64,000 bases of DNA from Blasia pusilla. Taxonomy: Eukaryota. Position 1 is the stretch's first letter. Every line of letters begins with the position of its first letter. This document shows positions 5,972 to 37,072 of the stretch, one piece after another. A program made the position numbers and the translations under genes. The stretch lies in NCBI GenBank assembly GCA_050084515.1, contig CM114271.1, positions 3,162,001-3,226,000 of the forward strand, written 5' to 3'. The notes below the pieces were generated by a model. That model was not told the DNA's origin. It ran no database searches and saw only the letters and a program-made list of their open reading frames with translations.

Positions 5972-6026
5972 ACACCTCCCGTTCGACCCAAGACCATGGC
6001 GAGTGCAATGTGATCCAAACCCCTGC
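5972..6026 (-). repeat. Inverted degenerate copy of the PMS2 5'UTR/start-codon region
   Basis: The reverse complement ggggtttggatcacattgcactcgccatggtcttgggtcgaacgggagg matches ~6386-6437 ggggtttggatcacattgcactggcagccatggcctcgggtcgaacgggagg. Confidence 0.85.
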
Positions 6027-12400: not shown

Positions 12401-12967
12401 ATTTATTTTTTGACTAAACCTTGTGCTGATACTCTGCAATATTTATATAATACCCTTCCTACCCCTACAATTTCCTGCAGATGTGCAGGAATTGATCTCC
12501 CTACTAGCGGACGAGCCTGTCATGTCTTTCAGCAGTGCCAATGAACAGTGCGAAGAACTATCCAATCATAGTTGCCATGTCAGAAGACCTGGACACTCAA
12601 GTTGGTTACCACGCCCATCACGAGTAAGAGGAATGTTTGCATCACGAGCTTGCAGGTCATCTATCATGATTGGGGATCCTCTCAGCAAGAAAGAAATGGA
12701 GCGGGTAACGCTTTCTACTGCTTTTCAATGTCTTACTCCTGTAGTTCTACACCCACACCCAATACGTCTACATTGAACTCCGTTCATCTTCTTCAATTTC
12801 CAGTGTTAAATTTCTGGTGGAAACTTGCAACTTTTTGCATGCAGATAGTCTCCCACCTAGCAGAGTTAGATTCTCCTTGGAATTGTCCACATGGGCGGCC
12901 CACCATGCGACACTTGGTAGACATGAGTTCTATTGGCAAGCAATACCCTCCATCTTCATCCAGGTAG
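6415..12967 (+). CDS. PMS1: DNA mismatch-repair MutL homologue, PMS2 type (plant PMS1), about 11 exons
   Basis: GHKL ATPase motifs ([45 protein letters not shown]), endonuclease motif [15 protein letters not shown] and CPHGRP motifs. Inferred GT-AG exons: 6415-6642, 7581-7904, 8278-9417, 9528-10174, 10514-10643, 11245-11313, 11530-11603, 11792-11857, 12187-12290, 12481-12704, 12845-12967. Confidence 0.96.
6733..7467. mobile_element. Probable solo LTR in PMS2 intron 1
   Basis: Termini TGAGA...TCTCA. Flanks TTGAA/TTGGA form a 5-bp TSD with one mismatch. Internal short direct repeats at ~7200/7244 and ~7341/7398. Confidence 0.6.
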
Positions 12968-15221
12968 ACCACTGTCTTCACCGCGCACACGTTTTCATCT
13001 CTGCCATAAGTTTTCATCACTAATGTTCTCTGATTCACTTTATTGAGTATATAATTAATCTCTCCTGATTTCCTGCAGACCTTGAAAATGGACGCCCATG
13101 TCCTCTGCTGAGTGTCAACCCTGAATACTCGTTTTTCCACTCATGTAAATTCTTCAGAACCCACCCTTCCATTTGCTGGGAATTCTCTGTATGATTTATG
13201 AAGTTGCCTTAACCTTTCATGCATTGCTTCTAGTTAAGGCACGAAGCACTTTAAGGCTATCAAAAAAACGTATGCTGACCAATATTTGTATGGGTGATGA
13301 CTTGGAATGGTACCAGTCTCATGAGAAATCAGACTGCTAATTGTCCTCAGAACAGTCTTTGTTATTTGCCAACCAGGAAGGTGATTGATGGCAGCCCCTC
13401 TCTAAAATGTAATCGAGCTATTCATCAATGCACACAATCTCACTCAATGCAAGTGTCCCTGGCATCCAGATGGAACCACATGCCATTAACGCCAACACAG
13501 TGTACATTCATGTATGTGAGTACAGCTAAGGCAACTTTCCAAACTTCATGTCTGACATAAAAGACTCTGCAAGTCTTGCATGAATTCATATCAGTAGAAG
13601 AGGGATTCAGGTAGTTTTACAGGGTTTATCTCATTTTGTAAGTGGTTAGAGGGAAATGTCTTGAGCATTGCCCTTAAATTCTAAGGTCTCAATCATTTTT
13701 ACCTTTAATAATTGTCATGCCCTCTAACCTAGATATGAAGTTTTCAGATTGTACCAACTCATAGACGTTTTTGCACATTGTATTATCAAGTGTTCCTCAC
13801 CTTGGTTGACGTGGGTGTAGTAAAATGTCAGAAATGCTTGCTTTATGAACAATGCTTGTTACTTCTTGAAATCAAATTTTACAATGTTCTCTCACAGTGA
13901 AGATGAATTTGAGAGTTCTTACTAGCTTGATACACCATCTGACTGAGATTTACTCATTATTCATCACCTCTTACTGGTTTGAAATATTACTTGTAGAGAA
14001 TATAAAAAAACCCATGATTGGCCAGAGAAGAACTTTCACATTTCACTTTCCCCTTTACCTGATTTCCATTCCCAAACCTCAGTACTGGAATTGACCAGAA
14101 TTGATCTACGAGTGTAACATCTATAGATCATATGGTTCATTTTTTTTTATACTCTGTTCTGAATTGCTGTGAATCGCAATAGTGGACAACATACATAGTA
14201 AACTTTTCAGGGTGAACATGAGGGTGACTTGAGGGTGAATGACTTCCTTCAATTTATAGGGATTTTGAGGATAAATTATGAAGACTGATTGTCAGATATT
14301 TAACAGGACAAATTAACAGATTGATGCAAAATGATCATTATCAAATAAATTGGCGAATTTCAGGATCTGCTGGGCCATGGTTACAGCCTCATAGTAGAAA
14401 CTACATTAGAAGGTGGAAAAGACCAAAATTATGAATGATACTGATCATGATAAGGATTGGAAATTGGATTCCTCAATTTGGCTTTTTCCTTGTTGATTGT
14501 CCTCTCAATGGTCATAACCACCATAGCCCACTCTTCACCACCATTACCACAGGACAGTGGAGCTATCACCCAGCTCTTCTGAGTCCCTCATCAGTGTCTG
14601 AGGACTCTGAAAAGCTGGGTGATTGTTCCAATGTGGTCGAACAATCACCCAACATGACAATGAAAGGATTGCTAACATTGACTTCCAACTTCTGAACTGC
14701 CAATAATGTTTCCAGTTAATGTAATCCATAAAAGTAAGCAGAGGACATAAAACATCACAAAAGTGTTGGGATGGAACTTGGAAAATGGTTAGATTGCTTG
14801 CACTTAGGCATGATTGCCTGGGCTTAAGGGTTTAAGATACAACAAGGTAATGTGAAGCCCTATGAAGCACTGGTGCTCAACTCGGCCCTTGCAGTGAATC
14901 CCACGATATACAACGCTTATTCAAAACCTCTGTTCTTGTTAGTCAATCAGAGATTGACATCAGTCTACAAAATATAGTTCTGTACAACATAGATATTTCT
15001 TTACAATACAAGGTTTCCCCCATCACTGCAATGGCAAACACCCACAAACTTCCACTCAAGAAATTTCGCACTCCACTGTAGGACCCTCAGAGATATATGC
15101 AACAATAGAAGGTAAACTTTCTTTGATTCACAAGATATCGGTCCTGTTTAATTGTTGACTGGTGTGGCACTGGGAAGTTGGGTGTTGGGCCTGATTAAGT
15201 TCATGATATAGCTCTCCTCCT

Positions 15222-16807
15222 TTACAAGGAATCTGTCATGAGAAATGCTCTTATGCGTTGCAGCAGTTCAGCCTTGACGTTGTCCGGCACCATAGCTGCA
15301 ACCCAGTGACAGAAACATGTAAATCCCAACCATGCTTCATTGAAAGTATGAATATTGATACAATGGCAACCACCACAATAATGATCGGGCGCCTCAAGCT
15401 CTGCTTATGCAGATTCACCGTGAACAATCATATATTCAGAATGGCATCTATTGGGTAATATTGGCAGTAGGAACTTAGAAATTCCACGCTCCACGTCCAT
15501 AAGATGAGTGAGAAATGAGATGAGTGAGAAGTTGATCTAGATACCTCGACCTTTGGGGGTGATGTTGCGTACAATCTCGTCTACTGTGATATTCCCTCTA
15601 CCCTTTTTCCTAGTAAACGCCCGACACTGGGCTTTCAGCTCGTCCCTCCATCCACATTCAATTAGTCTTTCTCGCAGAAGCTCCTTTAATCGCTCCTTTT
15701 CTCCACTTTCTATCAACTGCCGATGAGCAAGTGGTACCAAATTTCAGCAATTCTGCAATTGCTGACCCTGTCACTTCTTTTACAAGCTTCAAGCCCATCC
15801 TTATGCACTAGGGCAGAAAGTAGATTCGTGATTTCGGACACGCTTTGGTAGTAACATGAGTAGAGGTCAACTGAACAGCCAAGTCACCTTAATATTTATA
15901 ATTTCTTGAAGAGTTGGCTCAGCCTCCTTGTCTTCGTCCGCGTCAGGAGTTGGTGGCCGATTGATTGATGCCCTCCTACAAATCCAGTGACATTAAGCCA
16001 AAGTCATTCAACTAGGACATTTGACAAATTACCACCCTACAAACTCCACAACATCACGGATGGCTCGGGTACACCCGACTGCCTTGGCCAGAAATAGGAA
16101 TTCTAATCAAGCATTCCACATCTGCAGATCACTTGACAGACTTACGCAACAATAAAACCATCAAAGACACTATTCCCTCTCCCGAACTTCTCACGCTCAC
16201 GGAATCACGCAACAAATTCTTGAGGACGTGGACATGGTAAGTCTAGCGAGGCATGATCACGTTCCCGCCCCATGGAAAACATCCTCCACAGAAACCTCGC
16301 CACACACAGCCCTAAGCTGTTCCATACCCCATACTTTCTCGAATATCTCTGTCACGCTTTCTCCTGACTACGCATTCTCCTGTAAGCGACCTTCTCATAA
16401 ACGGGAGATCAAAGAAAGAAACAAATACAAAAAACCGGGAGAACCGCACCCTAAACCCTGAGAAGTTCCAGGCCCCGTATCTTATCAGACATCTCCACTC
16501 TTTCTCCAAACTCAGCATCCTTCCCTAAGCGACCTTCTCATGAACGGGCCCATAGAGGAAGGCGAAAAAAACGCAGACAGAGAATCGCCAAACAGTACCG
16601 CACCCTAAAACCTAAGCAGTTCCAGGCCCCAGACTTCCTCAACCGTCTCGTCACGCTTTCTCCCCAAGCCTAGAATCCTCCCGCAAGCGACCTTCTCGTG
16701 AACGAAACAAAGCAAACAGCAGACGGAGAACGGCCACACACACACACACACAGAATCCCACCCAACCAGACGGACGTGGCCCACAGGTCGAGATTTCGAG
16801 CTTACAT
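15222..16807 (-). CDS. ENY2: ENY2/SUS1 transcription and mRNA-export factor (SAGA DUB module/TREX-2), 4 coding exons
   Basis: Spliced product MRASINRPPTPDADEDKEAEPTLQEIINIK LIESGEKERLKELLRERLIECGWRDELKAQCR...ITPKGR AMVPDNVKAELLQRIRAFLMTDSL*. Exons 16807-16806 (AT), 15975-15888, 15716-15545, 15295-15222. Confidence 0.93.
16295..16710. repeat. Three diverged tandem units of ~145-160 bp in ENY2 intron 1
   Basis: Core AAGCGACCTTCTCRTRAACG at ~16384, ~16527 and ~16685. ACCGCACCCTAAA..CCT..GTTCCAGGCCCC at ~16443 and ~16597. Confidence 0.85.
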
Positions 16808-17721
16808 AGCTGCTTATGATTTCAACACGACGCCAGTGCGGGGCCTGTGACCCTATCTGCTCTTCGGTATCAGGATCTCGCAGTGTTGGACATCGTCCGC
16901 ACCTTTCACTGCATCGTGGCGTCTTCGTAGTACAATCCCTGCATTCCGCGTACAGTCCTTAGCGTTCGGTACACAGAGAGCCAAATTATGTTGGCACTCT
17001 AAACTTTCATTAGAGAAACGTCGAAGCTTTGGACGACCAAACCCTCGCGAACGCGAAAACAGTCACCTTTGACAACTCGGACTTCCTTCGAAGGGCCGGA
17101 CTTATGGACATGCTTCACATCTTCGATTTATTTATTTATTTATTTATTCCCTTGCTATGTATGGATGGATTATAGGGGTATTCTAAATCGCTTGGGGTAA
17201 GGAATTAAATTAAAGAAGTATTTAACTAATCCTCGAAAAAATTTAATTGGCCTTTCAGATTAATTCTGGATAATCTTATTGGCTGAAATATTGAATCATC
17301 CTATTGGTTAAAAAGGTGGAGTGTGAAGAGGAGAGGTATTTGAAATTCCAAGGGGCACTCTCCAATAATAATGGGCATGAATTGCATCTTCTAATTTATT
17401 TATTCCCTTGCTATGGATTATAGGGATATTCTCTATTTTTTTTATAGTTAATTGTATGGGGAAAATAGAATCATTGTTGTTTGTAGTTGTGAGTATTCTT
17501 TGGGGCATGAATGAAAGATTATTTATTTCCTCCTTTTGGGAAAAGTTTGCTAGCTTTTTGGTTTCTCCTTTTCGGTTTGTTCTTTTTTCTTTTCTTTTCG
17601 AAAGGTCACCATATGGTTCCCTCCATTTGGAAAATCATACTCCCTACCTCCTAGTTTTCCAAAACAAACAAAAAATCTCCATCCTCTCTTTACCGTTATG
17701 AAAGAAAAAGTTACCCTTCCA

Positions 17722-18043: not shown

Positions 18044-18080
18044 TTCTTCATTATTATTTTTGAGTATGTGTTGTACATGG

Positions 18081-18217
18081 TGTCGTGCCCATACACATCG
18101 CTACACAACATACATCGTTGGTCACATCCACACCACACAACACCGATCTTCCCCACATACGGGTACATCCACACATGTACAGAAATCAACTCATACATAT
18201 ACTTGGAGATCACACAA
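18081..18217 (-). repeat. Terminal repeat Y, copy 2 (3' end of element, ends ...CACGACA)
   Basis: Aligns with 18702-18820. Confidence 0.9.
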
Positions 18218-18699
18218 CAAAAATCAAGAGTAGAAAAAATGGCACACCCGGCCTAAAACTCCACTCCTCAATCTACATCGGCATATCGAGCCTCGTCCAC
18301 CCTATGCTATCAAGGAATCTAGACGCTAGCACCTAGTCTTAACTCACACACACGAGCAAGAATGGTACTCCAACGGCCCAACGTGAGAAAGATGCCTTGG
18401 AAAAGCCATCTTCCTCCCTCATATAAGTTTGGGAAGAGCCAAAAGGCTCTTCCCCTAAAAATAGCTATCCTCTTGGTAACCTGCGCGCACAGGTTACCAA
18501 GGGTGGATGACCTGCTCAACAAGTCACCCGATAATGAAAGACCTCATTAGGAAAGTTCTTAGACACAATGTTTCTAACACAACAGACCTATCTTCAACCT
18601 CATCCGATACTTCGGGACAAAGTTACACTCAAGACAGTCCGCTAGCTCCTATGCCTTATCCACAATAGATCTCGGCCTTTCGGCTACTCAGATGTGACA
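18218..18699 (-). repeat. Terminal repeat X, copy 2 (starts TGTCACATCT on the minus strand)
   Basis: Aligns end to end with 27081-27564, roughly 85-90% identity by eye over the ~120 bp compared base by base. Confidence 0.92.
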
Positions 18700-18701
18700 A
18701 T

Positions 18702-18820
18702 TATCGTGCGCATACAGATCGCTGGTCACATCCACACCGCACAACACCGATCTTCCCCACACACAAGTAGATCCACATATGTACAGAAATGAACTCATAC
18801 ATATACCTGGAGATCACACA
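18702..18820 (-). repeat. Terminal repeat Y, copy 1, directly after the polypurine tract
   Basis: Aligns with 18081-18217. The minus strand reads AGGGGGATGAT|TGTGTGATCTCC (PPT-like tract 18822-18831). Confidence 0.88.
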
Positions 18821-18898
18821 ATCATCCCCCTAGATGGCAATTGGATCCCCCTAACTCCAGATAGAAAATATCACATCTCCTTGACATGACCTACAACC

Positions 18899-19040
18899 CT
18901 ATACATATCTCGGACATATCCATCGTCCTGTGGGAACTACATCAAGAGGGGGGTCATACATGACATATGCCACCCTCAAGAACAACCAACACATACCAAC
19001 ATGGTGGCTGCACCCCTCGTAGATCCGCACAACATACACC
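18899..19040 (-). pseudogene. PHD finger at the C-terminus of the retrotransposon integrase
   Basis: CMLCGSTRGAATMLVCVGCS*GWHMSCMT / PPLDVVPTGRWICPRY, a C4-H-C3 pattern with one stop, one frameshift and the last Cys changed to Tyr. Confidence 0.88.
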
Positions 19041-19049
19041 TCAAGCTTG

Positions 19050-21980
19050 CGGGTACCACTTCCAAGCTCGGATCCGTTGTCTCGTCCACGTTTGGAAGGT
19101 GACATGGCAAACAGTTGCACACCTAATCCTTCCAAACCATACCATCCCGTCCCTCCAACATGAGGACTCTGGTCGATAATACCTCACGCATCCATAGGAT
19201 CGTGCGCCCTGCAGTGACATCTAGCGTCATGGATACCACCTGTTGTAAAAACACGTAATCTCTAGAATGAAACCTCCTAATCCCTGGACGATAACCTCCT
19301 CGACCAATGGTTGCGTAGCTCAATGTATCCCTATGTTGAGCAATAGCTAAGTTCTCAAAGGCCATGGGCATAACTCTACGAAAAATCTCCGCCCTTGAGA
19401 ACATGCTTGAACCCACACATCTGGATCATCAAGATCTAATACCTCTGCCATGTCACGTCAAGTAGCTGTAGGTAAATCTGGCTCTCTCCCAAAGAGCAAA
19501 AAGTATGGTGAAAATGACATCAAGGATGTCTGCCGATTAAAGCGATAATCCATAGCAAACCATAGCAACTGTAGATCCCACTCCCTCAACTGTCCCCGCT
19601 GCAAGCCATACTTGCGCAATCCTCTCATCACCGTTTGTACTACTCTCTCCACCAACCCATCTGCCTCAGGATGATCTCTGGATGTGGTGCGGTGATCTAT
19701 CAGCGTCTGGTCATACAAGGCCTGAAACTCTCCCCTGAACTCGGTACCCTAGTCAATCAACACCTCCGCCTGTGCACCAAAGTGACTAAGCACACGATCT
19801 AGAAATGCAAAAGTTTTTCCCTTGCTTGCCTTTTCCGGGAGTGCCACCAACTCTATCCACTTGGAGAAATGCTCCACCATGACCAACACGTACTTGTGAT
19901 GATGCTCCGTCACTGTCAAAGGTCCCGCGAAGTCTAAACTCCACCGATAACCTAAACCCATAATCGGTAAAGGATGTAACTACGGAGTGGGAGCATTGAA
20001 GGATGCTCGAACTTTGTCATATATCATACATCTGGCCACAAATTGTTGTACCCGAATATGCATGCCACACCACCAATACTGAACATAGAGTAAGCTGTAA
20101 GTACGCTTTACTCCAACATGCCCCAACTCCTCATGGGCATGTCGCACTACACGTGCTTGCTATGAAGGATGAGGTGCCACTCGTATCCTACCATCTCCCC
20201 ATACCCGCAAAATGTGAGTCCCCTCCCACCTGAACCTCCTAGCTCTCTATAGGATATGATCCCGTTGCCTAGCACTCACAGTGCTCGCTATGATGCCAGT
20301 ACGCAAGAACTCCACCACCTCCACGTCGACATGGATATCTCTACCACGTGTTACCTCCTCACCGACCTATGGATCCAAAGACTCATTATCCGACCCCACC
20401 ACTAGAGCCACCGCCTGCGGTTGACCTGCTATAGTCAACCAACAAAGATAGGCAGATGCATGCCAACCGAGCACCATCTCCCCATCACTCTCTCCGTGCC
20501 ATCGAGCTCCTGTGTCGTCTCTCTAACTCAAACATGGGTTACGACTCAACCCATACGCATCTTGGTTCAACCAACCTGGCATGTGAACCACCTCAAACTC
20601 ATACTCTTGTAGTAATATAGCCTGCCTGGCAAGCTTTCCCGCAAGCTTGTCGGACTCCATCAACCACCTTAACGGCTGATGATCAATGATAAGTGTGAAA
20701 GGGTTGTCGGATAAATAGCACCTGAAATGTGCCACGGCCCACATTGTAGCCAAGCACTCTCCCTCATAGGAGTTGTACTTTGCCTCTTCAATGTTGTTCG
20801 ATCACCTAGCGTAAGCCACAACGAACTCCCTCTCCTCATCATCCTTGTGAGTAAGCACTGCTCCTAGACCCAACATCCTCCAATCCGTATGTAGCTCGAA
20901 TGGGCGACCTCTTACCGGTCTCTGTAAAATGGGTGAGGATGTCAACATGTCCTTGAGCTTCTAAAATGCTTGCTCTTGATCATCTCCCCACAACCAAACT
21001 TGATCAAGTCTCGTCAACAAGATCAAAGACTTCGCGATCGCACTAAACCCCTTGACATACCGTCCATAGAAGTTCACCAGTCCTAGAAACACTCGGACTT
21101 GACTCACATCTGTAGGGCGTGGAATCTTCGAAATAGCCTCCACCTTCAACTGTTGAATACCTAACCCACTCGGGTATATGGTGTGTCCCAAATACTCAAT
21201 CTGCTCCTGAAAGAATCTGCACATGTCTTGATGTAACTTCAATCCATGTAATTGCAATCGCCGGAACACCTCCTCCAGGAGTCGCTCATGCTCCTCAACC
21301 GTGGAACTGAAGATAAGAATATCATGTATGTAACACCATACAAAATCCAAGCCAGCCATAATCCTATCCATCACTCTCTAAAACTTTGCAAGCGCGTTCT
21401 TCAACCCAAATGATAAGAACCGCCAGTGATACAGAGAATCTCTCCCAAATCGATCTATCCCCTATAATATTGTCTTCTCCTTGTCCTCCAACCTGATAGG
21501 AAGTTGATGATATCCAACACGGAGATCTAAAGTACCAAAGATCTTTGCATGCCCTACCGCATCAAAAATCTCCTCATGAGTAGGCATGGCGTATCGATTT
21601 GACCTCGTCTAACGCTTGATATGACAATAATTTCCACACATCCGCCTATCCGTCCAATTGCCATACATATCCTTCTTTGCCGGCATGACTGTGGCAGATG
21701 CATACTCCCCATGTGATAACTCCACAAGTCCTTCCTCCAACAAGTCTTGACTCCTACTATGAATCAAGGCTCGCTTCATCTCACAATACCTGTAGGATCG
21801 ACGAAAGATCGGTGTATCACTAGCCAACTGAATTCGTATGTTGGGACCCTTTAGTGTACCCAAGTCTCTCATACTAAAGGCAAAACAACTGAAATGCCCT
21901 CTCAAAAACCTATGAATCCGTCGTCGCTCTCCTCTTGTCAACTTAAGACCTATCACAAGCTCCCAAGTCTCCATCATGAC
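19050..21980 (-). pseudogene. Gypsy pol remnant: RT, RNase H, integrase
   Basis: ORF pieces 21609-21977, 20961-21374, 20523-20753, 19749-19961, 19458-19718 and 19123-19416 carry canonical motifs, broken by stops. Confidence 0.93.
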
Positions 21981-22284
21981 CTCACTCAGAGAGGACGCAA
22001 CCTCCGGCTTTGGTTGCTATATAGCAACCCTAGCCACCTTCGCAATAGCCACTCCTCTCAGACCTCCTACACCATGCTCCACATCCAAAAAATGAACATG
22101 TGTTGCTCTGACCATCTTCGCACTCTCCACTCAAACGACGTCCCAGGAAGTCCATGGGTGCTTATCTCACCTCGTCCCGCCCCTAGCCAATGCCTCTACA
22201 GACCTTGTAAGCAATGCTCCAACTTGTGGAAGTGACGGCATGGATGACACTCGCATCCGTCTCTACTTAGCCATACCTAGGCTG

Positions 22285-22899
22285 ATTATTCATGTGAGAC
22301 AGTTGAGGTCCATCGCTTGCCCCAACACCTATCTCCGGGATGCCTCACTCATACTTGGCACCGCTGTAGTACCCGTAGCAAACCCCATGGCGCGCTCGCG
22401 CTCATTTTCCATAGGGTCCTCCAATGCTCGAGTCACCTCATCCCAAATCATGTGTGGCCTCTCCGTGACGAAAGGCATGGGATGTTGGGAAGCTCACCAA
22501 CGGAGATAAGGGTGTCCTCAACTCCCCCACCCTATTGGCTATCGCCAACGGTGGTCTATCATCCCACGTCACCACTTGAGATTGGCGCCTTGAGCCCAAA
22601 ATAGCATCCACTGTGAGATGTGGTGCTCTATGAACCAAATGAATGGTGCCAACTCTATCGAGATCTTGCGCCCCTACCAAAGAGATGTCAGCGGGTAGTG
22701 TATCCTCATACCCCTGTACTACAGATACCAACAACAACTCAGAGTACCTTTGGACCAATCTCGCCATGTGACGTAATGATACTTGCCCTAGGGTCTCATC
22801 TCTCTCCACATAAGGGTATTGATGCACCCATATGCCTACCTGCAATATCATAGCTAATCCGGTGCTAATCCCTCCAAAGAGATCTAACACCCTAACACC
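22285..22899 (-). pseudogene. DNMT3/DRM-like C5 cytosine DNA methyltransferase domain inside the retrotransposon polyprotein region
   Basis: Motifs I-III: GVRVLDLFGGISTGLAMILQVGIWVHQYPYVE...DISLVGAQDLDRVGTIHLV. After a frameshift, motifs IX-X: ERERAMGFATGTTAVPSMSEASRR*VLGQAMDLNCLT. Motifs IV-VIII are not found. Confidence 0.85.
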
Positions 22900-23279
22900 C
22901 TCCTCTGGACAGTGCCACACAATAGATGTGTTATCCAGTGGTGTCAACGTCTCCACTCCAAGAGCCCCATTTTCACCTAACTCTCGCTGCTCTAGGATAA
23001 AGGCATGACTCCACGCCTACCTCACAAGGTCGTTGACACTCCTCTGTAGCTCTCGAGTCGTTCGTACCCCACAATGGTGAAGAGGTCTTGCCAACATGGG
23101 AAGAGACACTCGCCATGGCCTGTCTCTCTGTGGGACTATCCGCTACTAGGACATCCACCGCATGTGCGTTCCTCTCCAACAATTCTCCTCTCCAGATAAC
23201 ACTACCTGTGAAAGTTTCCAACGTGGTCACAGACTCGTCTCGTGATCAACCACCTTGTCCCGCAAACTGCACCGGTAAT

Positions 23280-25800
23280 TGATTCATCCGCCTTCCACCT
23301 TACAACCACCCTGGCTCATAAGCAACACTCTCCTCCTAGAAGTCAAGGATGAATCCTAGGGGATATAGCCTTGTACTCCCCACCAACACATCGTACGACT
23401 CAGTCAGTGTCGTAATTGCACGTGTGTGCACCATAGCAGTATCTGTCGCATGCTCTGGTTGGACTCTAACAGCTATCTCTTGTTGAGTCATATACTACAT
23501 TGGTGACATGTCCCCAATCGAGGTCTGTATCTGGAAGGAACAAGGCTCAATGTTGACCTTCGGTAACCCCAACGCTAAACACGTCGCCTTCCCTAACATC
23601 AAGGGATGCGCTCCCGAATCAAGTAGGACGCGTTGCGGGTGATACACTGTCCTTGTCGGACTAACCAAGCGAAATACTCCAACTCGATTATCCAATAACA
23701 TCACGCAAGGTGTCAGCATGGCCCGCTCTATGGCCGGTTGAGCTGGCGTATCTACCAACTTCGCCGCCGCCGCATGCCATGACTCTATGGGGGACGTCCC
23801 GAGCACTTGCTTCGAGGGAAAGTCCACCACCTCCTCAACTACCTTTGAACGAGAGCCAGTCACCTCTCCACGCTCACACAATGTGGCAGCCAACCGGAAC
23901 ACCTCAGCTGGTCTAACTCCCGATGTCACCAACTCTATGGCAGAAAATAATGGAGCCTGGCTCACCATGGTAGCCACCTCCAACACTATGGTCGATAGTG
24001 ACTCCACTCGAGCCGGCATAGGAGCTTCCACTCCAACTCCTTATGACGTCGATGCACCCGCCTGACCTGTAGGCACTACTGGTTGTCGAGACACTATCAA
24101 TGGTGTGTGAAGTGCCTCTGACAACGTGAACGATTGTGGAACCGTGGCTTGCCACCCATCGGTCCCCTCGGTGGGTCAATCTCAACTCCACCTCTCGATG
24201 GCTCAGTGCCTCTCGCAGCACCCTGAGTCATCGCCGCAGCAGCCTCAACATGTGTTGCACTACACATTAGCCCCATACTAGCGATATCCTCACCCGGGTC
24301 ATGGTAAGAGGTAGAAGGTGGAGCCACACTAGCTACTCGCGGCTCTGTGCCTTCCCTGAGCTGCATCATCGTCATGGCAGCAATCCTCTACTCCAACTGA
24401 TCGATGCACGAGTGAAGCGCCGTCTCTAGTGCTCCCACTCCATCTCCTCTGGCACATGGTGGTCCTCTACCACCACGTCGAGGAAACAACTCCTCGACCT
24501 CCTTCAGGAAGCGCCCCTAAGCCTTCGGCCTACCTCTAGACGTGCCTCTCGACGAAGGTCAAAACTTCTATCCCTAATGTGACCATATCTGTGGCAATAG
24601 TCACATTGGTACTATGGTGGAGCCATCCTCTACGGCTCCTGAATAATCGGAGGTGCTCGTGGTCCCCTCCCATGCTGTGGGCAGTCTCTCTGCCTATGGG
24701 CCTCTCCACACGTCCAACAAGACAACATCAGTACCTGCTGGGCAACATATGTAGGTACGGGTCGTTGCCTCATAGGCTCACAGTACCCGCCCTGCTCTTT
24801 AGGCACACAGGCCGGCTCCCATGGTACTGGTGCTCGTTGTGGCACATGTGGGGTCACGGTCGCTCGTGGACCCGTCGACTCTCGAGAAAATCCAGTGGTC
24901 ACTACCTGCTCCTCATTCATGTTGAGCTCAATACGCTCAGACAACTCAAAGATCACCTTCAATGTGGGCTTCGCTATGTGAATCAGCACCGCATCTCAAA
25001 CTCTCCTCCGTAGTTCTTGGTCCAGAGTCCCGTACCAATAGCAATACTGGATTGATTGCGCCTTAGTCACCCCTTAAGTAGCAATGATCAGCCTCCTCAT
25101 GCGCGTGAATGCCTCTCTCAGACTCTCACCCGATCCTCACTGAAAATCTCAGAGACTCTTGACTTTTGTCGTGCACGCCCTGGTAGCTCTTCCCCAATTG
25201 TCGAAAGAACTCCACTGTGGGACTGAAACTGGGTGGCCCTCTACCACCAGAGGTCTTTGCCACATTGCCTTTCTCATTGCCCTCCTCTCCATCTAGTCTC
25301 CGGGCTGATGGTGTGGGTCTCTCTCCTCTCACGATCCCATCATATGCCTCGCGACCACTAGTGGACACATACCCTCGAGCCCAATACATCCTTTAGGCAT
25401 CAATCTCTCATAGATATAGTGATTGAAACTCCATGTAATCATCCATCGGAAGACCCTCTAAGTGCTAGAACAACCCCTTCCATACCATGAAAGGGTTGAA
25501 CCGTGTCGGGGCCTGTATCTCCTAGAAATTGCAACATGTGTCAAACTCTTGGATAAAGTCATCTAAGACAATGGTGTGGATTGCACCCAAAAAATGATGC
25601 ATGCCCCGGTGGCCCATATCGTCCATCTCCTGCCAAATGACATTGCCTCCGTCTGCGATCTCGTCACCACACCTGTTGTCTAGTAATGACGATCCAGCCA
25701 CGGAAAGATGTCGAGCTAGCTCCTCACTCGTAACCCCTCGGTATCTCACTCCACTCCGTGTCACACCACTTCTACTACTCGTACAACCCCGTTCTTTCAA
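23280..25800 (-). pseudogene. Gypsy gag and aspartic protease remnant
   Basis: CX2CX3HX4C knuckle and VLLDSGAHPLML, in fragmented ORFs. Confidence 0.8.
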
Positions 25801-27080
25801 ACGTGGGAAGAACGCCGTGATAAAAACCCTGTCTCACCCGCTCAAGCACTCAGACTCACCAAGAGTCTCCCATACTCCTCACTAGCTCACCGACACTAAT
25901 GGTAATCTGGTGACGACATGCACACTCAACACTCGGGCTCACCATGAGCTTCCCAACTAAATCACCTAAACCACTGACACTCTCGGGTCATACACGTGAT
26001 ACCTACTCGGCAACCGCCCTATATCCACATACATGCTACACATGCATGGAGACTACACTCGTCATCATCGCTACACCCGTCTGGCCCCAAAAACTACCCG
26101 ACACCCAACACTCTCAATCACATAAGACAAGTGCGGGAAAAGGGACTCGAATGAATAACCTTATCACGCCCTCCAACCTATGGCACAGTCAACACTCACT
26201 CCTCCCTGTGATATGACAACCTCCGCACCCCGACACTCCCCTTGAACCAACACGTCGAACCTCCCATCAACATCGGAGTATATGTCTCCATCAGAATCCT
26301 CGCAAATCCCAGCCACGCCTGCAACATATCACGTGCAAAAAAATCTCTCCGCCCTCCCCCAGACGCGCCTCGTAATCTCAACTCAACCCGGGACGAACTC
26401 AACCATGTCGACCCGTTTATCACGTCACTCGTGCCTCTGCCACGTCGCCCTACTACGTCCATCTTGGCCCCTACTACATCAATCCGCCGCCCTGCCCCTA
26501 CCACATCCGCTCCTCCACATTGCCTTACTACGTTCACTCCATTGACCACGTCGAGAAGGTGCCGACTACAGCACTCCCAACCACTTAAGGGGAAAAAAGG
26601 GGGGCAAATGGCTTGGCTTGCGTACCTATGGGCCTTAATGGCCCTTGGGGGGGGAGGGGTACGTGGAAGGGAAGGGTCGTGGCCAAGGGCCACGGCTTCG
26701 CAGCTCGCTGCCTCCGGCTCTGTTACCTGCAACCTAACCCTAGCCCTAGGCGGCTACGCCCTAGCTTGGACGTCCTCACGGCGGCTATGGTGCCCCGACC
26801 TAAGCTTCTCCTTCCGATTTCCGGACACTTACCGCTACTCACTTGCGACCGTCCTTGATACACTCTGCGCTACACCGGAACACTGCACTCTGCTGCTGCC
26901 TCCAGTCAGTTTGCACCCACAAAAACGTGAGAAAATATACATCGCTTCCGCCCACAACCTTCTGAACGAAAAAATGACAACAAAAATACCAACCAGGGTC
27001 TCCACGGACTTCCCACCGAGGCAACTTGCTTGCCTACTTGGTAACAACGAATTCCCACCAGCCCCATGACATCTTTTTCA

Positions 27081-27564
27081 TGTAAAAACAAAGAGTAGTA
27101 AAAATGGCACACCCCGCCTAAAACTCCACTCCTCAATCTACATCCGCACATGGAGCCTCGTCCACCTTGTGCTTTCAAGGAATCCAGACGGTAGCACCTA
27201 GTCCTAACTCACACACACGAGCCATAATGGTACTCCAACGGCCCAACATGAGAAAGATGCCTTGGGAAAGCCATCTTCCTCCCTTATATAGTGTTGGGAA
27301 GAGCCAAAAGGCTTTTCCCCTAAAAGTAGCTATCCTCCTGGTAACCTGCACGCATAGGTTACCAAGAGCGGATCACCTGCTCAAGAAGTCACCCAATTGT
27401 GAAAGACCTCAACAGGACTCTTGTCAGAAACGATGTTCCTGACACAACGGACCTATCCCCAACCTCGTCCAACACCTCGAGACAAAGTTGCACTCGAGAC
27501 AGTCCGCTAGCTCCTATGCCCTATGCACGATAGATCTCGGCCTATCGGCTACTGAGATGTGAAA
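27081..27564 (-). repeat. Terminal repeat X, copy 1 (5' end of element; putative promoter)
   Basis: Aligns with 18218-18699. TATATAA on the minus strand at ~27284-27290 is conserved in the copy at ~53117. Confidence 0.9.
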
Positions 27565-29367
27565 ATGGAGTTAATAAGGCTCTCAAAGTAAAAAGGGTTC
27601 ATCAAAATTGGCCATGTATGGAGGAAATATTCCAAAATTTTCCCTAATGCATTGTTAGACAAATATTTATTTGTAGTTGGAATGACATATGTCAAACATT
27701 GGAGGATAAGGAAAATAAAAAAGGTGTCCTCCCTTACTAGCATTTTTTTTTAAAAATCATTTACTTTCTTATTTGTTTATGTTTTTGTTTATTTATGGGT
27801 GGGGGGGAGTACCCCTTTATTCCCCACTTCAAAAATATGAAAATCCTCTCTTCCTCCCTCCTTCCCTTAATTCCCTCTTTTAAAACTTTCATCTATTTTT
27901 CTCTCCCTATCCTTGCTTACTCTATCAAAGTTTTCAATTCCTTTTTAGAATATAGACTTACACCATTTGGCTTGTTAGTATTCTTAGGTATCCCTTCATC
28001 ATCGAATACGATCACATGAGTTCGCCTCTTACCACCATTGTTATCCATAACTTCTACCATTGAATGTGAGTGGTAACAAGTGTACTACCACTAACAATGG
28101 CTTTTCCCAAAAAAATTTAACAAGGGATTCTCTTCTTGGTTGTTTCATAAGGGCTTTCACTACTACATTTACTGCTAGTTTGTGATTCTTTGTAGTCTTA
28201 GATTATTCACAAAGCAATTGCAAATAATTCACAAAGTATAAGTTTTGTACTCACAAATTATGACAACTTTACAAATGAAAAGACTTATTTTGTTACACTT
28301 ATATTGCTCTCACAAACCACTCACGAAGTGCTCAAAAGGTTACGTTTTCTAGAGTTTATGAGTAGATTGGATGATAGATGTATAATAGTGCAACTAACTT
28401 GCAATGGACTCAAAAATTAATCGTTCTGTTACATAGTAAAAAGGCCTTGCCCTACACAGAATTTGATCAAGTTTGACTCTTGCATAGCACCACGCGCCTA
28501 GTTTCTGCAGACTACCTAGGAAAGGCTTGTTGCTTGTTGGCCTCTAAGGCCCTTTAGTTGTTAGGAGATGAAGGAAAGGGCATGGATAACACTAGAATAC
28601 ATAGGCCGCTACGCGTCTGCTGCTTATGCGCCTTGTTATCCGGAATTTTGGTGACACTACTTCAAACATTCTATTATGAATTGAAAAACTGTAGTAAAGC
28701 TATTTCATCTCACACTCTTATTTACCTCCCTATATTTGTCCCTCTTACATCAATTTCATCCATTCTAAAGCTTTATAGCTCCCATGAGTAGTTTTCTTGA
28801 AGCAACTATTTAATTTTTTGAGTTTGATCTATATCGGTCACAAATTTAAGTGATTTAAACCCCCATTAGTAGTTTGTTCTCTTCTCATCCTAGCTTTGGT
28901 TTTGGTCGTCTCTTATAATTTGGTGTTTTACACTTTGTATGAGTAGGTCCATTGGACTTCATTGCCAAGGATGTGATTGGCATGTCTATTGAAGTTGAGT
29001 GTCCTCCTTGCCTAGAATCTTGCCTATAGAAGAAGCCATAAGATAACTTTTCCAATCTCCTTTGAATCCCATGCAACATTATGAGTGTCGTAGATATCCT
29101 CCAAAACAAATCTACTCTAAAGAGAGGTGCAACATTAGCAAAAGTACAATGGACTTGGTATTAAGAGTCCAAATACATCTAAAGTTGGCAAGAAAGGCAC
29201 AAAAGGAAATCTAGAAATTTGGAAAGATATAAGTAAAGTACAATGTGGGTTGAATACGTAGGAGCGGATTTCCTAAGCCTTACAATTAAGGCTAAGAACC
29301 CCAATATGTTCAATGGGGAAATCATATATTTAAACATCAAGGATGGCCATTTCCATCTCTATCCCTT

Positions 29368-29650
29368 TGTCACATCTGGTCTCAATGTATGTGCGTGAGT
29401 TTGTTTGGTTTATGGATGGATCGACCCGTGTGTTATGAAGATCGGTGTTGTGTGGTGTGTAGATGTGATCAATGATGTGGGTTGTATAGCAATGTGTATG
29501 CGTACTACAACGTTGTAGGGTCTCGATGTATATGCATGAGTTTGTTTGGTTTATGGATGGATCAATCCGTGTGTTGGGAAGATCGGTGTTGTGTGGTGAG
29601 TAGATGTGACCAACGATGTGGTTTGTGGAGCGATGTGTATGCGCATCACA
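29368..29650 (+). mobile_element. 283-bp deletion derivative of the same retrotransposon family
   Basis: Begins TGTCACATCT (X start), contains two tandem Y-like units, ends ...GCATCACA, and is flanked by a perfect 4-bp TSD CCTT (29364-29367 / 29651-29654). Confidence 0.85.
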
Positions 29651-32029: not shown

Positions 32030-35000
32030 GGCTACACTCCTCGTAGATCCACACAACATACACCTCAAGCTCACAAGTACCACTGCCAAGCTTGGACCCA
32101 TCATCTCATCTACGTTCAAAAGATGGCGTGGCACACAATAATGCACATAATCCTTCCAAACCATACCATCCCATCACTCCAACTTTGAGCGATAACACCT
32201 CAAAATCATGCATCCCGTAGTGACATCTAGCTTCGTGGGTACCACATATTGTAAGTGCACATAATCTCCAAGATGGAACCTCCTTATCTTTGGACAATAA
32301 CCTCCTCCACGAATGATTATGCACCTCGATGTATCCCTATGCTAAGCAATAGCTAAGTTCTCAAATGCCATGGGGATAACTTTACAAGATATCTTTGCCC
32401 TCTAAGAACATGCTTGTCCCCATACATCCGGATCATCAAGTTCCAACACCCTTGCGATGTCACAGCCAATAATTGTAGGTGAGTATATCTCTCTCCCATA
32501 GAGAAAAAAGTACAGTGAAAATGACCTTAAGGACGCCTGCCAATTGAAGGGATATCCCATACCCAACCATAGCAAGTGTAGCTTCCACTCCCTCAAATGT
32601 CCCCATTGCAAGTCATACTTGCGTAACCCTCTCTTTATTGAATATAGTACTCTCTCCGCCAATCCATCTGCCTGCAGATAATCTATGGACGTGGTGCGAT
32701 TATTTATCAATGTCTGATCACACAAAGTCGAAAACTCTCCCTTGAACTCCATACCCTGGTCAATCAACATCTTTCTCGGTCTACCAAAATGAATAAGTAC
32801 TTGATCTAAAGACTCACAAGTTGCTCCCTCACTCACCTTGTCCGATAGCACCACCAACTTTATCCACTTGGATAAATGCTGCACCATAACCAACACACAC
32901 TTATGATGACGGATCGTCAATGGCGAAGGTTTCGCAAAGTCTAGACTCCACTGATAATCTAATCCCATAATCAACAAAGGATGCAACTGTGGAGTATGAG
33001 CATTTAAAGATGCTCATACTCAACGAGACACCATACACCTGGCTACAAAGTATTAAACCTCAATATTCATGCCATGCCACCAATAACGAACTTGGAATAA
33101 GCTATAAGTACACTTTATTCCAATGCATCCCAATTTTTTGTAGGCACGTTGCACAACACGTACTCGTAGGGAAGGACGAGATACTATTTTCATCCTCCCA
33201 TTCCCCACACCCGTAAAATGTATGTCCCCTTCCACATGAGGCTCTTGGCTCTCCATGGGATTTCATCCCATTCCCTAACACTCATAATGCTTGCTATGAC
33301 GCCATTGCGTAGGAACCGTAGAACCCCCACATTATCATGGATATATGTGATTTTACTATATATTGTTGTTATATAGTAAAATCACCCGCTAAGTAAACTC
33401 CTTTATCATTAAGTTTAAGAAAGAGTTTTATGCGTATTAAGTAAATTAGCCTAGGAAAATGAAATTCTCATGTTTAAACTTCTTTTATGTGACTCATTTG
33501 CGCCGGCCCAACTTCAAGAAAATAGATAATAATTAAAAGATGGGATTAGAAAAGTAAAGTAGTGGGATTGGTCTTTTAATAAAACAAAAGTAAAAATAGT
33601 GTTGGTTGGTCGCTAGGGTTGGTGGGGTAGTTTGGAAGATATGAAGGAAGTAAAAGAGGATATTTTGGAAGAGATAAGAGGTAATCTACTTGTGTCAAAA
33701 TGTGATTGGCTAAGCCTTGAGAGGAAGCCATGTGGCACAAGATAAGATTTTATACTCTTGTGAATCCCTTGTGAGTATATAAAGAGCATGGACCTTCAAG
33801 GGTTCATCACTTTCTACTTCACATATTAAGTCTCTTATGTCATTCTTGAATGTATGGCTTTGGGATTGTTTGCTCTTCCAATGAGAGTGGATTACCCCTT
33901 TTGGGAAAGTAACTTGACCTTGCTCTATTATTCGAGAGTTTTCTAGAGTGTGGTATGTGTGGAGATGAGAGTCCTGTCATCTTAGATGAGTTTAGTCATG
34001 CTAGAAATAGGTGATGGTTTGGCTTGTTATTTTTCGAATGAGAGTGGATTATCCCTCTTGGGAGAGCAACTCCGCCAAATCCTATTTTAGAGGAGAGTAG
34101 AGGATGCTTGTCAAGTATGGATAGGGATGGAGCACGAGTTGTGCCGGATTTTCCTTTCTTTAACCTGTACCACATCAAGATTCTCTTTGTAGATAGGCAC
34201 TAGTTCACTCGCTATCTAGTTTATCACTTTGGGGATGCGTTCATGAACCAAGTCATACAATCTCCAACTCCGGTGATTCTTCCTATAGTCACGTACAGAA
34301 GGACATGGAATTGCACTTTGTATGTCCTTATATAGCTATCCATGGACGTCAATAGGCATGTTTGAGTAGGATTTAACACTAGTTGTGTTATTTTCCTTGT
34401 GTACAAACGTAAAGTAGTTTACAGGGATTTCATAGTTAGAATTTTTGGGATTCCATGTTATGAAGAAGTGATAATCTCGGCACTACCATTCGTGATTCCT
34501 GTCGTGAGAGAATGGAGAGTTTACACAATAATTTTATACTGAAAAAGGAGAAATTATTATAGAGTTTGACTTGCATCAACCACGTCTGCTTCAGCTAGAA
34601 GGTCCGCCCTTACTCGAAGAAAGGACTTTCGACACGACATCGTTGCCTCCTCACTAACCTCTAAATCTGAAGACTCATTGTCTAAATCCACCACTATAGT
34701 CGCTATATGTTGTTGATCTAACATAGTCAACCAACAAAGGAAGGTTGATGCATGCTTACTGAGCACCTTCTTCTCATCACTCTCTTCGTGCCATCAAGCT
34801 CTTGTCTTGTCTCTATTACCCGAGCAAGGGTTACAACTCAACCCATCTGCATCCACATTCACCCAACCCAGCCTATGAACCACCTCAAACTTGTACTCGC
34901 ATAGTAGTAGAGCCCACTTGGCAAGCTTCGATGCAAGCTTGTTAAACTCCATCAACCACCTCAATGATGGATGATTAGTGATAAGTGTGAAAGGATTGCC

Positions 35001-37072
35001 ATATAGATAGCATAAAAATGTGCCACGACCCACATTGTAGCCAAGAACACTTCCTCATAGGACCTATAATTTTCCCCTACAATGTTGTTCAATTGGCTTG
35101 CATAAGCCACAACGAACTTCCTCTTCTTATCATCTCTATGAGTGAGCGTCGCGCCTAGACTAAACATGCTCCAATTTGTAATTAGAAAGAACTACCCCTC
35201 ATAAATCTTTGTAGGATGTCATTCTATCGTTGAGCTCCTGAAATATTGGCTTCTAATCATCTCCACAAAGCCATATATGATCAATTCTCTTAAGGTCAAA
35301 GATTTCACAATCATACTAAAACCCTTAATACACCATTCACAGAAGTTTGCAAGTCCTATAAATGCTCAAACTCAACTTGCATCTAAAGGGCATGGAATAT
35401 GTACAATAGCCTCTACCTTTGTTTGTAGAATATCTAACCAAACTGGATATATGGTGTGCCCTAAATACTTGATTTTCCCATGGAAGAATCAGCATTTGCT
35501 TCGGTGTAACTTTTGTCCATGTAGTTGCAATCGCCGGAACACCTTCTCCAAGTGTAACTCGTGCTCCATAATCGTGGAATTGAAAATAAGAATTTTATCA
35601 TTGTAATACTGTACAAAATTCAAGCAAGGTAGAATCGTGTCCACAACTCTTTGGAAGTACGCAAGGGCGTTCTTCGACCCAAATAGTACGAACCGCCGTT
35701 GATACAAATAATATCTCCCAAAAAGTCTATCGCCCAAAATATTGTCTTCTTATTGTCCTCCACCCTCATAGGAAGCTGATGGCAGTCATCATGGAGATCT
35801 AAAGTAATAAAGGTTTTGGTATGCACAACCGCATCGAAGATTTTCTCAGAATTGGACATGGCGTATCCATTTGACCTTGTCTATCGATTGACAAGGAAAT
35901 AATCTCCACACATCCACCTATTCATCCAATTGTCATACACATCCTTCTTCATCGGCATGACCATGGCATATTCATACTCTCCATGCTATAACTCCACAAG
36001 TCCTACCTCCCACAAGTCTTGACTCCTACTATGAATCAATGCTCCCTTCATGTTGGACTTCCTATAGGATTGACGTAAGATTAGCGTATCACTAGCCAAC
36101 TCTGTCCGTATATCAAGATCCTTCAAAGTACCTAAGTCCCTCATACTCAAGGTGAAACAACCCACATACCTTTTGAAGAATCTTTATATCCGCCGTCTTT
36201 CTTCTCCTATCAACTCAAGACCTATCACATACTTCCAATTCTCCATTGGACCTCACTTAGAGGAGAAGAGACCTATGAATTTGGTTATTATGTAGCAACC
36301 CTAGCCACCTCCGCTACAACCACCCCACTCTCACCTCCTATATCATGCTCTAAATCTGAAAAATGAGCATGTGCTTCTTTGGCCGCCTCTGCACTCTCTA
36401 CTTACACAACATCCTTGGAAGTCCATGTGTGCCTATCTCTCCTCATCTCATCCCCCGCCACTGCCTCTACATACCATGTAAGAAATTTGCCAACTTATGG
36501 ATACGACAATATGGATGACATTCACATCTGATGTTGCTCAACCAAACCTAGGTTGACTATCCATGTGAGACATGTTAGGTCCATCTTTCTTGTGTAAAAT
36601 CGAAGTAAAAACAACTCACACGTCCAACTCCACACATGAATCCACACGTGATATCGAGCCACATCCACCCTTTGCCATGAGGGAGCCCATACTCTAAAAG
36701 TCAAGCTACTACCACACATTAAGCAAGAGAATTGCTCCAAAATCTCTATATGAGAAAGATGGCTCACGAAAGCCCTCTTTCCCTCTTTCCCTCTTTGATA
36801 CCCTTGGGAAGAGGAAAAAGCTCTTCCCCCAAAAAGATCCCTCTAAATAGTAACCTACATGTACAAGTTACTCCGTGACCCTTGACTTGGTCAACATGTT
36901 ACCGAGCCGAAAAAATAACGAAAGAGAGACTTTAAAAAAAATGATGATCCTGACACACCAAACCCGTCACCAACCTCATCCGACACCTCAAGAAAAAATT
37001 ACGCCCAATCAGCGAGTTAACCCTCTAGCTGACACGATAGAACTCTACATGTCAACTAACTAAGATGTGACA
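32030..37072 (-). mobile_element. Second, older and internally deleted copy of the Gypsy-MTase-PHD family
   Basis: Homologous integrase (WSLDFAKP..ADGLAER), PHD start (LRCMLCGSTR), RNase H, RT, MTase tail MDLTCLTWIV (~36550-36584) and repeat X (~36590-37072, ending AGATGTGACA). Interrupted at ~33346-34630. Confidence 0.88.
33346..34630. mobile_element. Unrelated LTR-like insertion inside the second Gypsy copy
   Basis: Homology to the first copy stops at ~33345 and resumes at ~34630. The insert is AT-rich with TATATAAA (~33776) and an internal duplication (33860/34018). Termini are not resolved. Confidence 0.55.

Follow-up and report, generated by a model that had tools for sequence, protein, structure and literature searches.

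Retrotransposons that carry the silencing enzyme of their host present a paradox, and few cases have been described. The closest described system is KnitGypsy-Dnmt3 of Klebsormidium nitens (de Mendoza et al. 2018, Nat Commun 9:1341; PMC5890265), whose DNMT3-type methyltransferase has conserved catalytic residues and a Ka/Ks below 0.2. The repeats of this element have a DIRS structure according to one figure legend of that paper (Fig. 4c) and are defined as "A-coding region-B-A-B" in another (Fig. 1e), and self-methylation of complementary DNA (cDNA) by retrotransposon DNMTs is suggested in the same work. Here, we analyze a 64,000-nucleotide stretch of the land plant Blasia pusilla (contig CM114271.1, positions 3,162,001 to 3,226,000; hereafter the window, with positions counted from its first letter), in which the minus strand of 18081-27564 is, as the best explanation of the locus as a whole, very probably a dead, old Ty3/gypsy-type insertion of the same "Gypsy-DNMT3" kind. 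The domains coded on this strand follow the order gag, protease (PR), DNMT3-like methyltransferase (MT), reverse transcriptase (RT), RNase H (RH), integrase (IN), and PHD finger.

Compared by description, the window element and KnitGypsy-Dnmt3 (PMC5890265) share the Ty3/gypsy domains, a non-rearranged DNMT3-type enzyme placed in the coding region, the A-coding-B-A-B repeats, and a streptophyte host. They differ in that the host of the window element is a land plant, and in that the window family shows a C-terminal PHD finger and a TAG codon past the MT. The words "PHD" and "Marchantia" have no occurrence in the main text of PMC5890265, a count that leaves its figures and supplements aside, and the main-text passages and figure legends of that paper mention neither an in-frame TAG-CAACC nor a B|A joint that equals the joined element ends. 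A preprint names "streptophytes (Gypsy-DNMT3)" as previously described (bioRxiv 10.64898/2026.05.21.726589), and DNMT3s in retrotransposons "in streptophytes" are referred to as known in a passage of PMC12344493. In the accessible literature, with subscription journals, Repbase, and the supplements of PMC5890265 aside, we found no report that places a Gypsy element with a DNMT3 in a liverwort or moss, or that describes one with a PHD finger.

An earlier annotation of this DNA, made from its letters alone (the sequence-only reading), had treated the full combination of features as possibly new in a land plant and had added that a prior record of a family with these features would take the novelty away. 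Because both the kind and the non-canonical ends are published (PMC5890265), much of that novelty is indeed removed, and the land-plant host, the PHD finger, and the stop codon are what is left of it. The observation itself is confirmed, its structural reading is right, and its wider interpretation is supported in part. The element is best placed as a dead and newly found member of a kind already in print. To that kind it adds the extension into land plants, the PHD finger, a conserved position for a leaky stop, and a palindrome formed by the joined ends, the last two being testable clues to enzyme dosage and replication.

Outside this kind, split direct repeats (A1-B1-A2-B2) typify retrotransposons that use a tyrosine recombinase (PMC4157794). 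Such elements, among them PAT, Ngaro, and VIPER, resemble the window family in having an internal B-A joint that mirrors the termini (PMC4157794), whereas the window family has no tyrosine recombinase but a DDE integrase, TG...CA ends, target-site duplications (TSDs), and the Ty3/gypsy order of Pol domains. SymbioDIRS-Dnmt3 of Symbiodinium (PMC5890265) likewise combines a retrotransposon-borne DNMT3-type enzyme with A-coding-B-A-B repeats, but it uses a tyrosine recombinase where the window family has a DDE integrase (rve and H2C2) and 4-bp TSDs. No phage-integrase match was present in any Pfam scan of the window or of the relatives. Epigenetic capture by retrotransposons is also known from arthropod Copia-MBD (PMC6673714) and from the EpiLTR and DAM-LTR elements, which carry chromatin writers and readers, EpiLTRs combining methyltransferases with a chromodomain (bioRxiv 10.64898/2026.05.21.726589). 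These cases involve other domains (MBD, an adenine methyltransferase, a DNMT4-like enzyme) and other hosts.

Domain content and decay of the window element

The element is bounded by the TSD ATGG, directly outside its ends at 18077-18080 on the left flank and at 27565-27568 on the right. Both this boundary and the domain order given above had been proposed in the sequence-only reading, and both hold, the order on the minus strand and in heavily decayed form, as judged from Pfam matches, motifs, and alignment to relatives. The whole minus strand aligns piecewise to Marchantia polymorpha gag-PR-MT proteins, such as P0011 (Mp_4g09160, 1278 amino acids [aa]; our reference for the window alignment), and to RT-RH-IN-PHD proteins. 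Stop-to-stop open reading frames (ORFs) across 18081-27564 are short and broken, and the copy has accumulated at least 37 in-frame stops (37 were counted along the aligned pieces) and at least six frame changes. For the Pfam scan, the minus strand was read through with X at each stop; plain ORF pieces of the MT, PR, and gag gave no Pfam match.

The coding region, all of it on the minus strand, begins with gag (24546-25626), which was assigned by motif and by alignment to relatives and contains a CCHC knuckle (CX2CX4HX4C, 24681-24719) and a second, decayed knuckle (24564-24605); the gag relative P0057 has a zf-CCHC Pfam match. The aspartic protease region (23063-24175) was recognized in the same way, with LLDSGA at 23609-23626, and aspartyl-protease Pfam matches occur in the relatives P0004 and P0057. 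It is followed by the remnant of a DNMT3-like C5-methyltransferase (22071-23049), identified by its motifs and homologues, in which motif I (LDLFGGISTGL, 22855-22887) and motifs IX/X (22302-22403) can be located. Beyond an in-frame TAG, discussed below, lies the RT (21177-21962), with an RVT_1 match at 21177-21578 (E=1.7e-19) and an N-terminal part that the alignment traces back to 21962. An RNase H of the Ty3/gypsy type (20601-20990; PF17917 and PF17919, RT_RNaseH and RT_RNaseH_2, E about 1e-25, with RT_RNaseH at 1.1e-25), the Integrase_H2C2 zinc domain (20007-20168, E=9e-12), and the DDE core of the integrase (rve, 19668-19949, E=3.6e-10) come next. RVT_1, RT_RNaseH, Integrase_H2C2, and rve are in the order of a Ty3/gypsy Pol, its PR being recognized by LLDSGA and homology.

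An in-frame loss of ~110 codons has taken out the catalytic core of the MT. Residues 968-1078 of P0011 (motifs IV-VI), a region that Pfam matches as the core and that includes the PC and ENV motifs, have no counterpart in the window; the gap falls at 22615-22644, and the flanking alignments meet at 22633/22635. Two points count here against reading a DNMT3-type enzyme into this copy: its own MT pieces have no Pfam match and reach only E=0.024 against DNMT3A, and with the catalytic core gone, claims of function rest on the relatives. The window copy itself can perform none of the functions proposed for the element below.

The PHD finger at the C-terminus (18940-19038; PF00628, E=6e-6, 26.6 bits with the cut-off at 24) is decayed as well, with two stops in and just beyond the finger. 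It is 71% identical to Marchantia Mp_7g09570 (P0064), whose PHD finger is intact and matches PF00628 at E=4e-9. Compared with solved structures, P0064 matches CHD4, PHF12, DPF2/3, ATXR5, KDM5A/B, PHF21A, and UHRF1 at E=1e-15 to 1e-8. Most of these fingers read the unmodified histone H3 tail, and an element PHD with the same preference would be consistent with silent chromatin as its target, which we offer as a lead. In chromoviruses, which are also Ty3/gypsy elements, the integrase ends in a chromodomain. The window family, too, has a histone reader fused to the integrase C-terminus, presumably steering integration, but this reader is a PHD finger, and the Pfam scans gave no chromo match. PHD fingers are a common accessory domain of Chlamydomonas transposons (PMC8557442).

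The methyltransferase as part of the family

A 192-aa piece of the window MT matches proteins carrying PF00145 (E=6e-49, 57% identity). When metagenome contigs were scanned with these proteins as an alignment, 113 stretches were confirmed by tblastn, from which 80 loci were kept. The element gave 60 blastn matches to these 80 loci, the best 40 of which (39 loci) cover RT-RH-IN at ~67-70% nucleotide identity, and in 48 loci the C-terminus of the MT is followed within 600 nt by the N-terminus of the RT. A plus-strand ORF of at least 400 aa is present in just 5 of the 80 loci, so this related metagenome family is decayed there too. Named relatives in the databases comprise many Marchantia polymorpha gene models and proteins of Calypogeia fissa, Sphagnum, and Closterium, and a chlorophyte "pol" protein of Scenedesmus sp. 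PABB004 is also a family member. Single proteins join the MT to its neighbors on either side: P0072 reads MT-RT-RH-IN-PHD, and P0057, from Closterium, reads CCHC-PR-MT. In a phmmer search against 1.84 billion representative proteins, the MT-only protein P0001 retrieved 4268 sequences at E<=0.001, 965 at E<=1e-10, and 269 at E<=1e-30.

The MT therefore belongs to the family: over 100 related loci share it, as do numerous proteins in the databases. A copy-specific insertion of the MT, which the sequence-only reading had named as an outcome that would refute it, is thereby contradicted. That reading had also proposed a search of other bryophyte and streptophyte genomes, and the databases contain relatives from Marchantia polymorpha, Calypogeia, Sphagnum, Closterium, and Scenedesmus. 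The Gypsy-DNMT3 kind thus reaches beyond one charophyte alga to liverworts, mosses, Closterium, and a chlorophyte.

When P0001 is compared with solved structures, DNMT3A is the best match (E=6e-12), followed by DNMT3B (about 1e-9), DNMT3C (6e-9), and tobacco DRM (1e-8), with DRM2 (1.6e-4) and HaeIII (3.5e-4) further behind. The label "DNMT3-like" is supported by this ranking of structure matches and not by a tree. The motif order in the relatives is unrearranged, and at the level of the family the enzyme appears to be of the non-rearranged DNMT3 type, of which the window copy keeps remnants alone. Among 52 type-1 relatives (the type to which the window belongs, defined below), regular expressions found the PC motif in 40, ENV in 45, and all four motif patterns in 30.

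Domain probes on 216 family proteins distinguished two architectures and found the PHD in 47 of the 216. Type 1, that of the window, is gag-PR-MT(-RT-RH-IN-PHD), and type 2 is RT-RH-MT-IN-PHD; 42 sequences in which the MT was the sole match carry no type label. One change between the types suffices in a FastTree phylogeny of 173 MT domains, which excluded proteins with a split MT match or with a match of <270 positions. This tree contains a clade with all 79 type-2 sequences and no type-1 sequence, at a Shimodaira-Hasegawa (SH)-like support of 99. Many type-2 domains (P0054, P0182, P0189, P0193, and others) read G-W-E-C-Q at motif IV in place of the near-universal P-C, so that the catalytic Cys is kept and the Pro replaced; "PC" is found in 28 of the 79.

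This variation bears on what the domain does. A structural or nucleic acid-binding module, or an RNA methyltransferase, rather than a DNA methyltransferase at work in the life cycle, would accommodate the many type-2 relatives with ECQ instead of the canonical PCQ as well as the type-1 relatives that fail one or more of the four motif patterns, and RNA methylation was raised by de Mendoza et al. 2018 for an enzyme borne by a long interspersed element (LINE) (PMC5890265). Most type-1 relatives from Closterium, Sphagnum, Marchantia, and Calypogeia nevertheless have the catalytic Cys, ENV, and motif I; the Klebsormidium domain is under purifying selection, and de novo CG methylation by retrotransposon DNMTs is described (PMC5890265). 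We therefore regard a function other than DNA methylation as quite improbable.

The MT follows PR in type 1 but lies between RH and IN in type 2, which means that rearrangement or recapture has happened, and DNMT capture is recurrent according to the literature (PMC5890265; bioRxiv 10.64898/2026.05.21.726589). The bryophyte elements could on these grounds stem from a separate, convergent capture of a DNMT3 and not from the KnitGypsy-Dnmt3 lineage. No Klebsormidium protein is among the 67 protein matches to the family, but as that search covered proteins of 518-1651 aa and the 8000 candidates sharing most words, this absence is weak evidence. A convergent origin would also have to produce twice the same rare set of features, in which a non-rearranged DNMT3-type enzyme accompanies Gypsy domains and A-coding-B-A-B repeats, and it sits poorly with a family range that runs from streptophyte algae (Closterium) to liverworts and mosses. 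We consider it unlikely and retain the assignment of the window element to the published kind.

At 90% identity, P0011 falls into a cluster of 18 sequences. Five of these are gene models of 1278-1281 aa from the reference genome of Marchantia polymorpha, one on chromosome 4 and two each on chromosomes 5 and V, and are annotated only as "hypothetical protein" or "CCHC-type domain-containing protein." Natural intact copies include the loci of Mp_4g09160, Mp_5g06330, Mp_5g06860, Mp_Vg00370, and Mp_Vg00540. Near-identical intact copies of ORF1 suggest recent activity in this species. Because several such copies are found in the tractable Marchantia polymorpha, self-methylation by a transposon becomes testable in a land plant. 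Element ORFs of this sort can also inflate the count of DNMT3 genes in bryophyte annotations.

The in-frame stop between methyltransferase and reverse transcriptase

The TAG between the two domains (22017-22019, minus strand) shares its frame with the MT C-terminus on one side and the RT on the other, is followed by CAA CCA, and marks the place onto which the C-terminus of P0011 maps. An RT N-terminus is present in 53 related loci. In 50 of them, CAAC[CT][CA] comes directly after the stop site, which reads TAG in 33, TAA in 15, and TAC in two; the motif is missing in three. The site is in frame with the RT match in 47 of the 53, and MT and RT matches share a frame in 35 of the 48 loci in which they adjoin. 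In several lineages, intact database ORFs (1150-1450 aa) stop 75-145 aa past the MT and have conserved C-termini. Whether gag-pol is one ORF had been posed in the sequence-only reading as a check; it is not one open frame, and the conserved in-frame TAG puts the MT into gag-PR-MT, upstream of RT-RH-IN-PHD. At the two loci with TAC (Tyr) at the stop site, L078 and L008, the context is the same CAACCC.

Plant viruses use UAG with CARYYA directly after it as the type I signal for a leaky stop (PMC5382211), and the TAG CAA CCA of the window is an exact fit to it. We infer from the sequences that gag-PR-MT would be the main product and that RT-RH-IN-PHD would be made by readthrough. In intact relatives, the genomic RNA would be translated into a Gag-PR-MT that ends at the UAG, as is shown by the conserved stop in this frame and by where the ORFs of those relatives end, and the few ribosomes that pass the UAG, perhaps helped by the CAA-CCN context, would yield Gag-PR-MT-RT-RH-IN-PHD. 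Lying upstream of the leaky stop, the MT would therefore be made at Gag-like abundance. Gammaretroviruses have a gag-UAG-pol layout. Tobamoviruses place a leaky in-frame UAG between an abundant upstream product and the polymerase (PMC5382211), a likeness that extends to the window family, although the stop in the latter comes after the PR and MT and not after gag, and its readthrough is our inference.

Several observations pull against readthrough. The related family has CAACCC in 48 of 50 loci, agreeing with CARYYA at five of six bases but not at the last, and RNAalifold on 32 sequences downstream of the stop (-16.9 kcal/mol, covariation term -1.4) gave no convincing conserved fold. In the type-1 relatives P0185 and P0072, the MT runs into the RT with no stop at all, so the stop is a feature of a subclade. 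The TAG could thus be a true ORF boundary, with RT-RH-IN-PHD arising through reinitiation, from an RNA that is spliced or subgenomic, or being provided in trans by other copies. Such a boundary would be in keeping with the deviating context, the lack of a conserved RNA structure past the stop, and the intact ORF1 proteins that stand alone in databases, and the ATG found two codons past the stop in the related family leaves some room for it. It would not predict, however, that ORF2 shares the frame of ORF1 in the window and in 35 of 48 loci, or that the stop site is in frame with the RT in 47 of 53; there is no conserved ATG-led ORF2 start at the boundary in the window, and UAG followed by CAA is a known leaky context in plants (PMC5382211). 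We find a true boundary doubtful and continue with readthrough as the preferred account. A readthrough signal that depends on RNA structure is not supported, given the weak fold and little covariation in the 32-sequence RNAalifold result.

Split repeats, element ends, and neighboring sequence

In coding orientation, the element has the layout A-internal-B-A-B, which corresponds to the X-internal-Y-X-Y termini of the sequence-only reading. Its 5' A repeat (27084-27564) starts with TTTCACATC and is separated from gag by a leader (25627-27083), in which no primer-binding site was recognized. Past the coding region, a polypurine-like tract, CTAGGGGGATGAT (18821-18833), sits just upstream of the internal B repeat (18702-18820). 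A 2-nt spacer, AT (18700-18701), then leads into the 3'-proximal A repeat (18219-18699), which starts with TGTCACATC, and after another 2-nt spacer the terminal B repeat (18081-18216) ends the element with ...GGGCACGACA. The two A repeats share just 87.6% identity over ~480 bp, for which reason we regard the insertion as old; the two B repeats are 90% identical over 111 bp, the terminal one having a 17-bp insertion relative to the internal one.

The ends are of the TG...CA type (TGTCA...ACGACA) and are flanked by the 4-bp TSD, but with A at both ends and B both internal and at the 3' end, the element does not have two canonical long terminal repeats (LTRs). The window copy ends in ...CACGACA, and its internal B|A joint, ...CACGATA-AT-TGTCACATC, is equivalent to both element ends joined with two extra bases.

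This DIRS-like arrangement is not confined to the window. Self-comparison of 19 of the 80 metagenome loci, picked for their long flanks, revealed A (~330 bp), an internal region, B (~115 bp), A, and B in seven. These represent six independent sites, because L020 and L059 have the same flanks and the same TSD, CATA, in different metagenome assemblies and were counted once; in another locus, L002, the contig ends inside the second A. The remaining 12 loci showed no matching repeat pair of the canonical LTR type. The related elements start with TGTCATGACC... and end with ...CGCACGACA, and four insertion sites have 4-bp TSDs (CATA, TCTC, AAGG, and AATC), while at the remaining sites one TSD agrees at three of four bases and one element has a truncated 5' end. 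Their internal joint, ...CGCACGACA-GC-TGTCATGACC, holds the palindrome GACAGCTGTC, of the form CA-NN-TG, and transition variants of the GC spacer are present. The purine tract upstream of the internal B is kept across both families, as CTAGGGGGATGAT in the window and CTAGGGGGGYGAG in the related family.

Rearrangement does occur in the window, which carries other fragments of the family, including a B-B dimer, and an ordinary LTR element altered there by nested insertion, unequal recombination, or misassembly might take on an A-int-B-A-B appearance. The recurrence of the layout with matching junctions at six independent sites in another species, four of them with perfect 4-bp TSDs, already contradicts such an accident, as do the lack of canonical LTRs in all 19 loci examined and the publication of the same layout for Klebsormidium (PMC5890265). 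We give it almost no credence and take the split repeats as a property of the family.

How these ends are made is less straightforward. Two features tell against ordinary LTR-type replication of the element: no TGG-type primer-binding site adjoins the 5' A repeat, and a polypurine tract upstream of the internal B would, by standard reverse-transcription logic, predict B-A LTRs, unlike the ends observed. No tRNA gene is present within the 64-kb window. The standard two-jump replication model, which predicts B-A LTRs at both ends, was accordingly not adopted. A second candidate, random opening of a 2-LTR circle at either B|A palindrome, predicts A-B-A-int-B about as often as A-int-B-A-B, and was likewise not adopted; no A-B-A-int-B copy is found in the window or in the seven loci with the split layout. 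The internal B|A joint repeats the sequence of the joined ends and so probably regenerates or defines the ends during replication.

For intact relatives, a working sequence can be proposed. After the protease has freed the parts of the polyprotein, the DNMT3-type enzyme would most likely methylate the new DNA of the element itself, following the suggestion of de Mendoza et al. 2018. The DDE integrase would insert linear DNA that begins with the start of A (TG...) and finishes with the end of B (...CA), giving the 4-bp duplication that is seen in the window and at four related sites. The C-terminal PHD finger would most likely tether the integrase to histone H3 tails in a chromodomain-like manner, so that self-methylation of cDNA and PHD-guided integration might together form the self-contained chromatin read/write module that the sequence-only reading had put forward. 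A broader claim joins all of these parts: that the elements form a distinct replication class of DDE-integrase, LTR-type elements, whose ends are rebuilt from an internal palindromic CA-NN-TG "joined-ends" site, with Gag-level DNMT3 supplied through a leaky UAG, methylation of the cDNA, and a PHD finger that chooses H3K4-unmethylated chromatin. End building of this kind would resemble that of DIRS/PAT elements, or a 2-LTR circle opened internally, and not the standard two-LTR scheme. As a joint claim it is tentative, and we lean against its holding in every part.

Three further pieces of the family, as many as the sequence-only reading had counted, lie within the window. The largest (32030-37075, minus strand) is, by sequence comparison and alignment, a second, older, 5'-deleted copy, ~75% identical to the first and more decayed. 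It retains an A-like repeat, the MT C-terminus, RT, RH, and IN, and is without the leader, gag, PR, and most of the MT, the A-like repeat (36596-37075) directly adjoining the MT C-terminus. Its RH is parted from its IN by ~1.3 kb of unrelated sequence (33344-34642), and the stop site, at the same place, has decayed to TAA TAA CCA. The second piece consists of two tandem B-like repeats on the plus strand (29377-29650), inverted relative to the first element, with a 141-bp period, an 88% match, and no A in between; this B-B dimer may be a recombination product or the remnant of another copy. The third is an A-like repeat with 86 bp of leader in the opposite orientation to the first element (52845-53387, plus strand). 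Just outside the element, 16294-16706 holds three tandem units of ~145-155 bp (repeat families D4 and D5).

Among sequencing runs, five of DNA contain just 7-14% of the sampled words, and none of RNA is listed. Plus-strand GC skew is strongly negative (-0.12 to -0.28) from 16000 to 38000, across both minus-strand copies; the coding strand of the element family is G-rich relative to C. Host genes lie on the plus strand at 45203-45640, 46440-47996, 48798-50542, and 54839-56257. Among them is a kinesin motor exon (SSRSHSVF...LVDLAGSER), and the long ORFs beside it have a coiled-coil-rich look and may belong to the same gene. The gene at 54839-56257 is a single-exon gene for a GT47 exostosin-type glycosyltransferase, most similar to P0074 (56% identity), followed by Marchantia paleacea (55%), Calypogeia fissa (53%), and two Riccia species (52-53%), with 40-43% identity to Gb_38509, lycophytes, and a moss; the identities to liverworts refer to 55130-56257. 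As the single gene compared, it fits a liverwort-like bryophyte host, although it may be a paralogue of the matched genes. The GT47 exon has an observed/expected CpG ratio of 1.13, as against 0.69 in the element and 0.47 in 1-17000 of the window.

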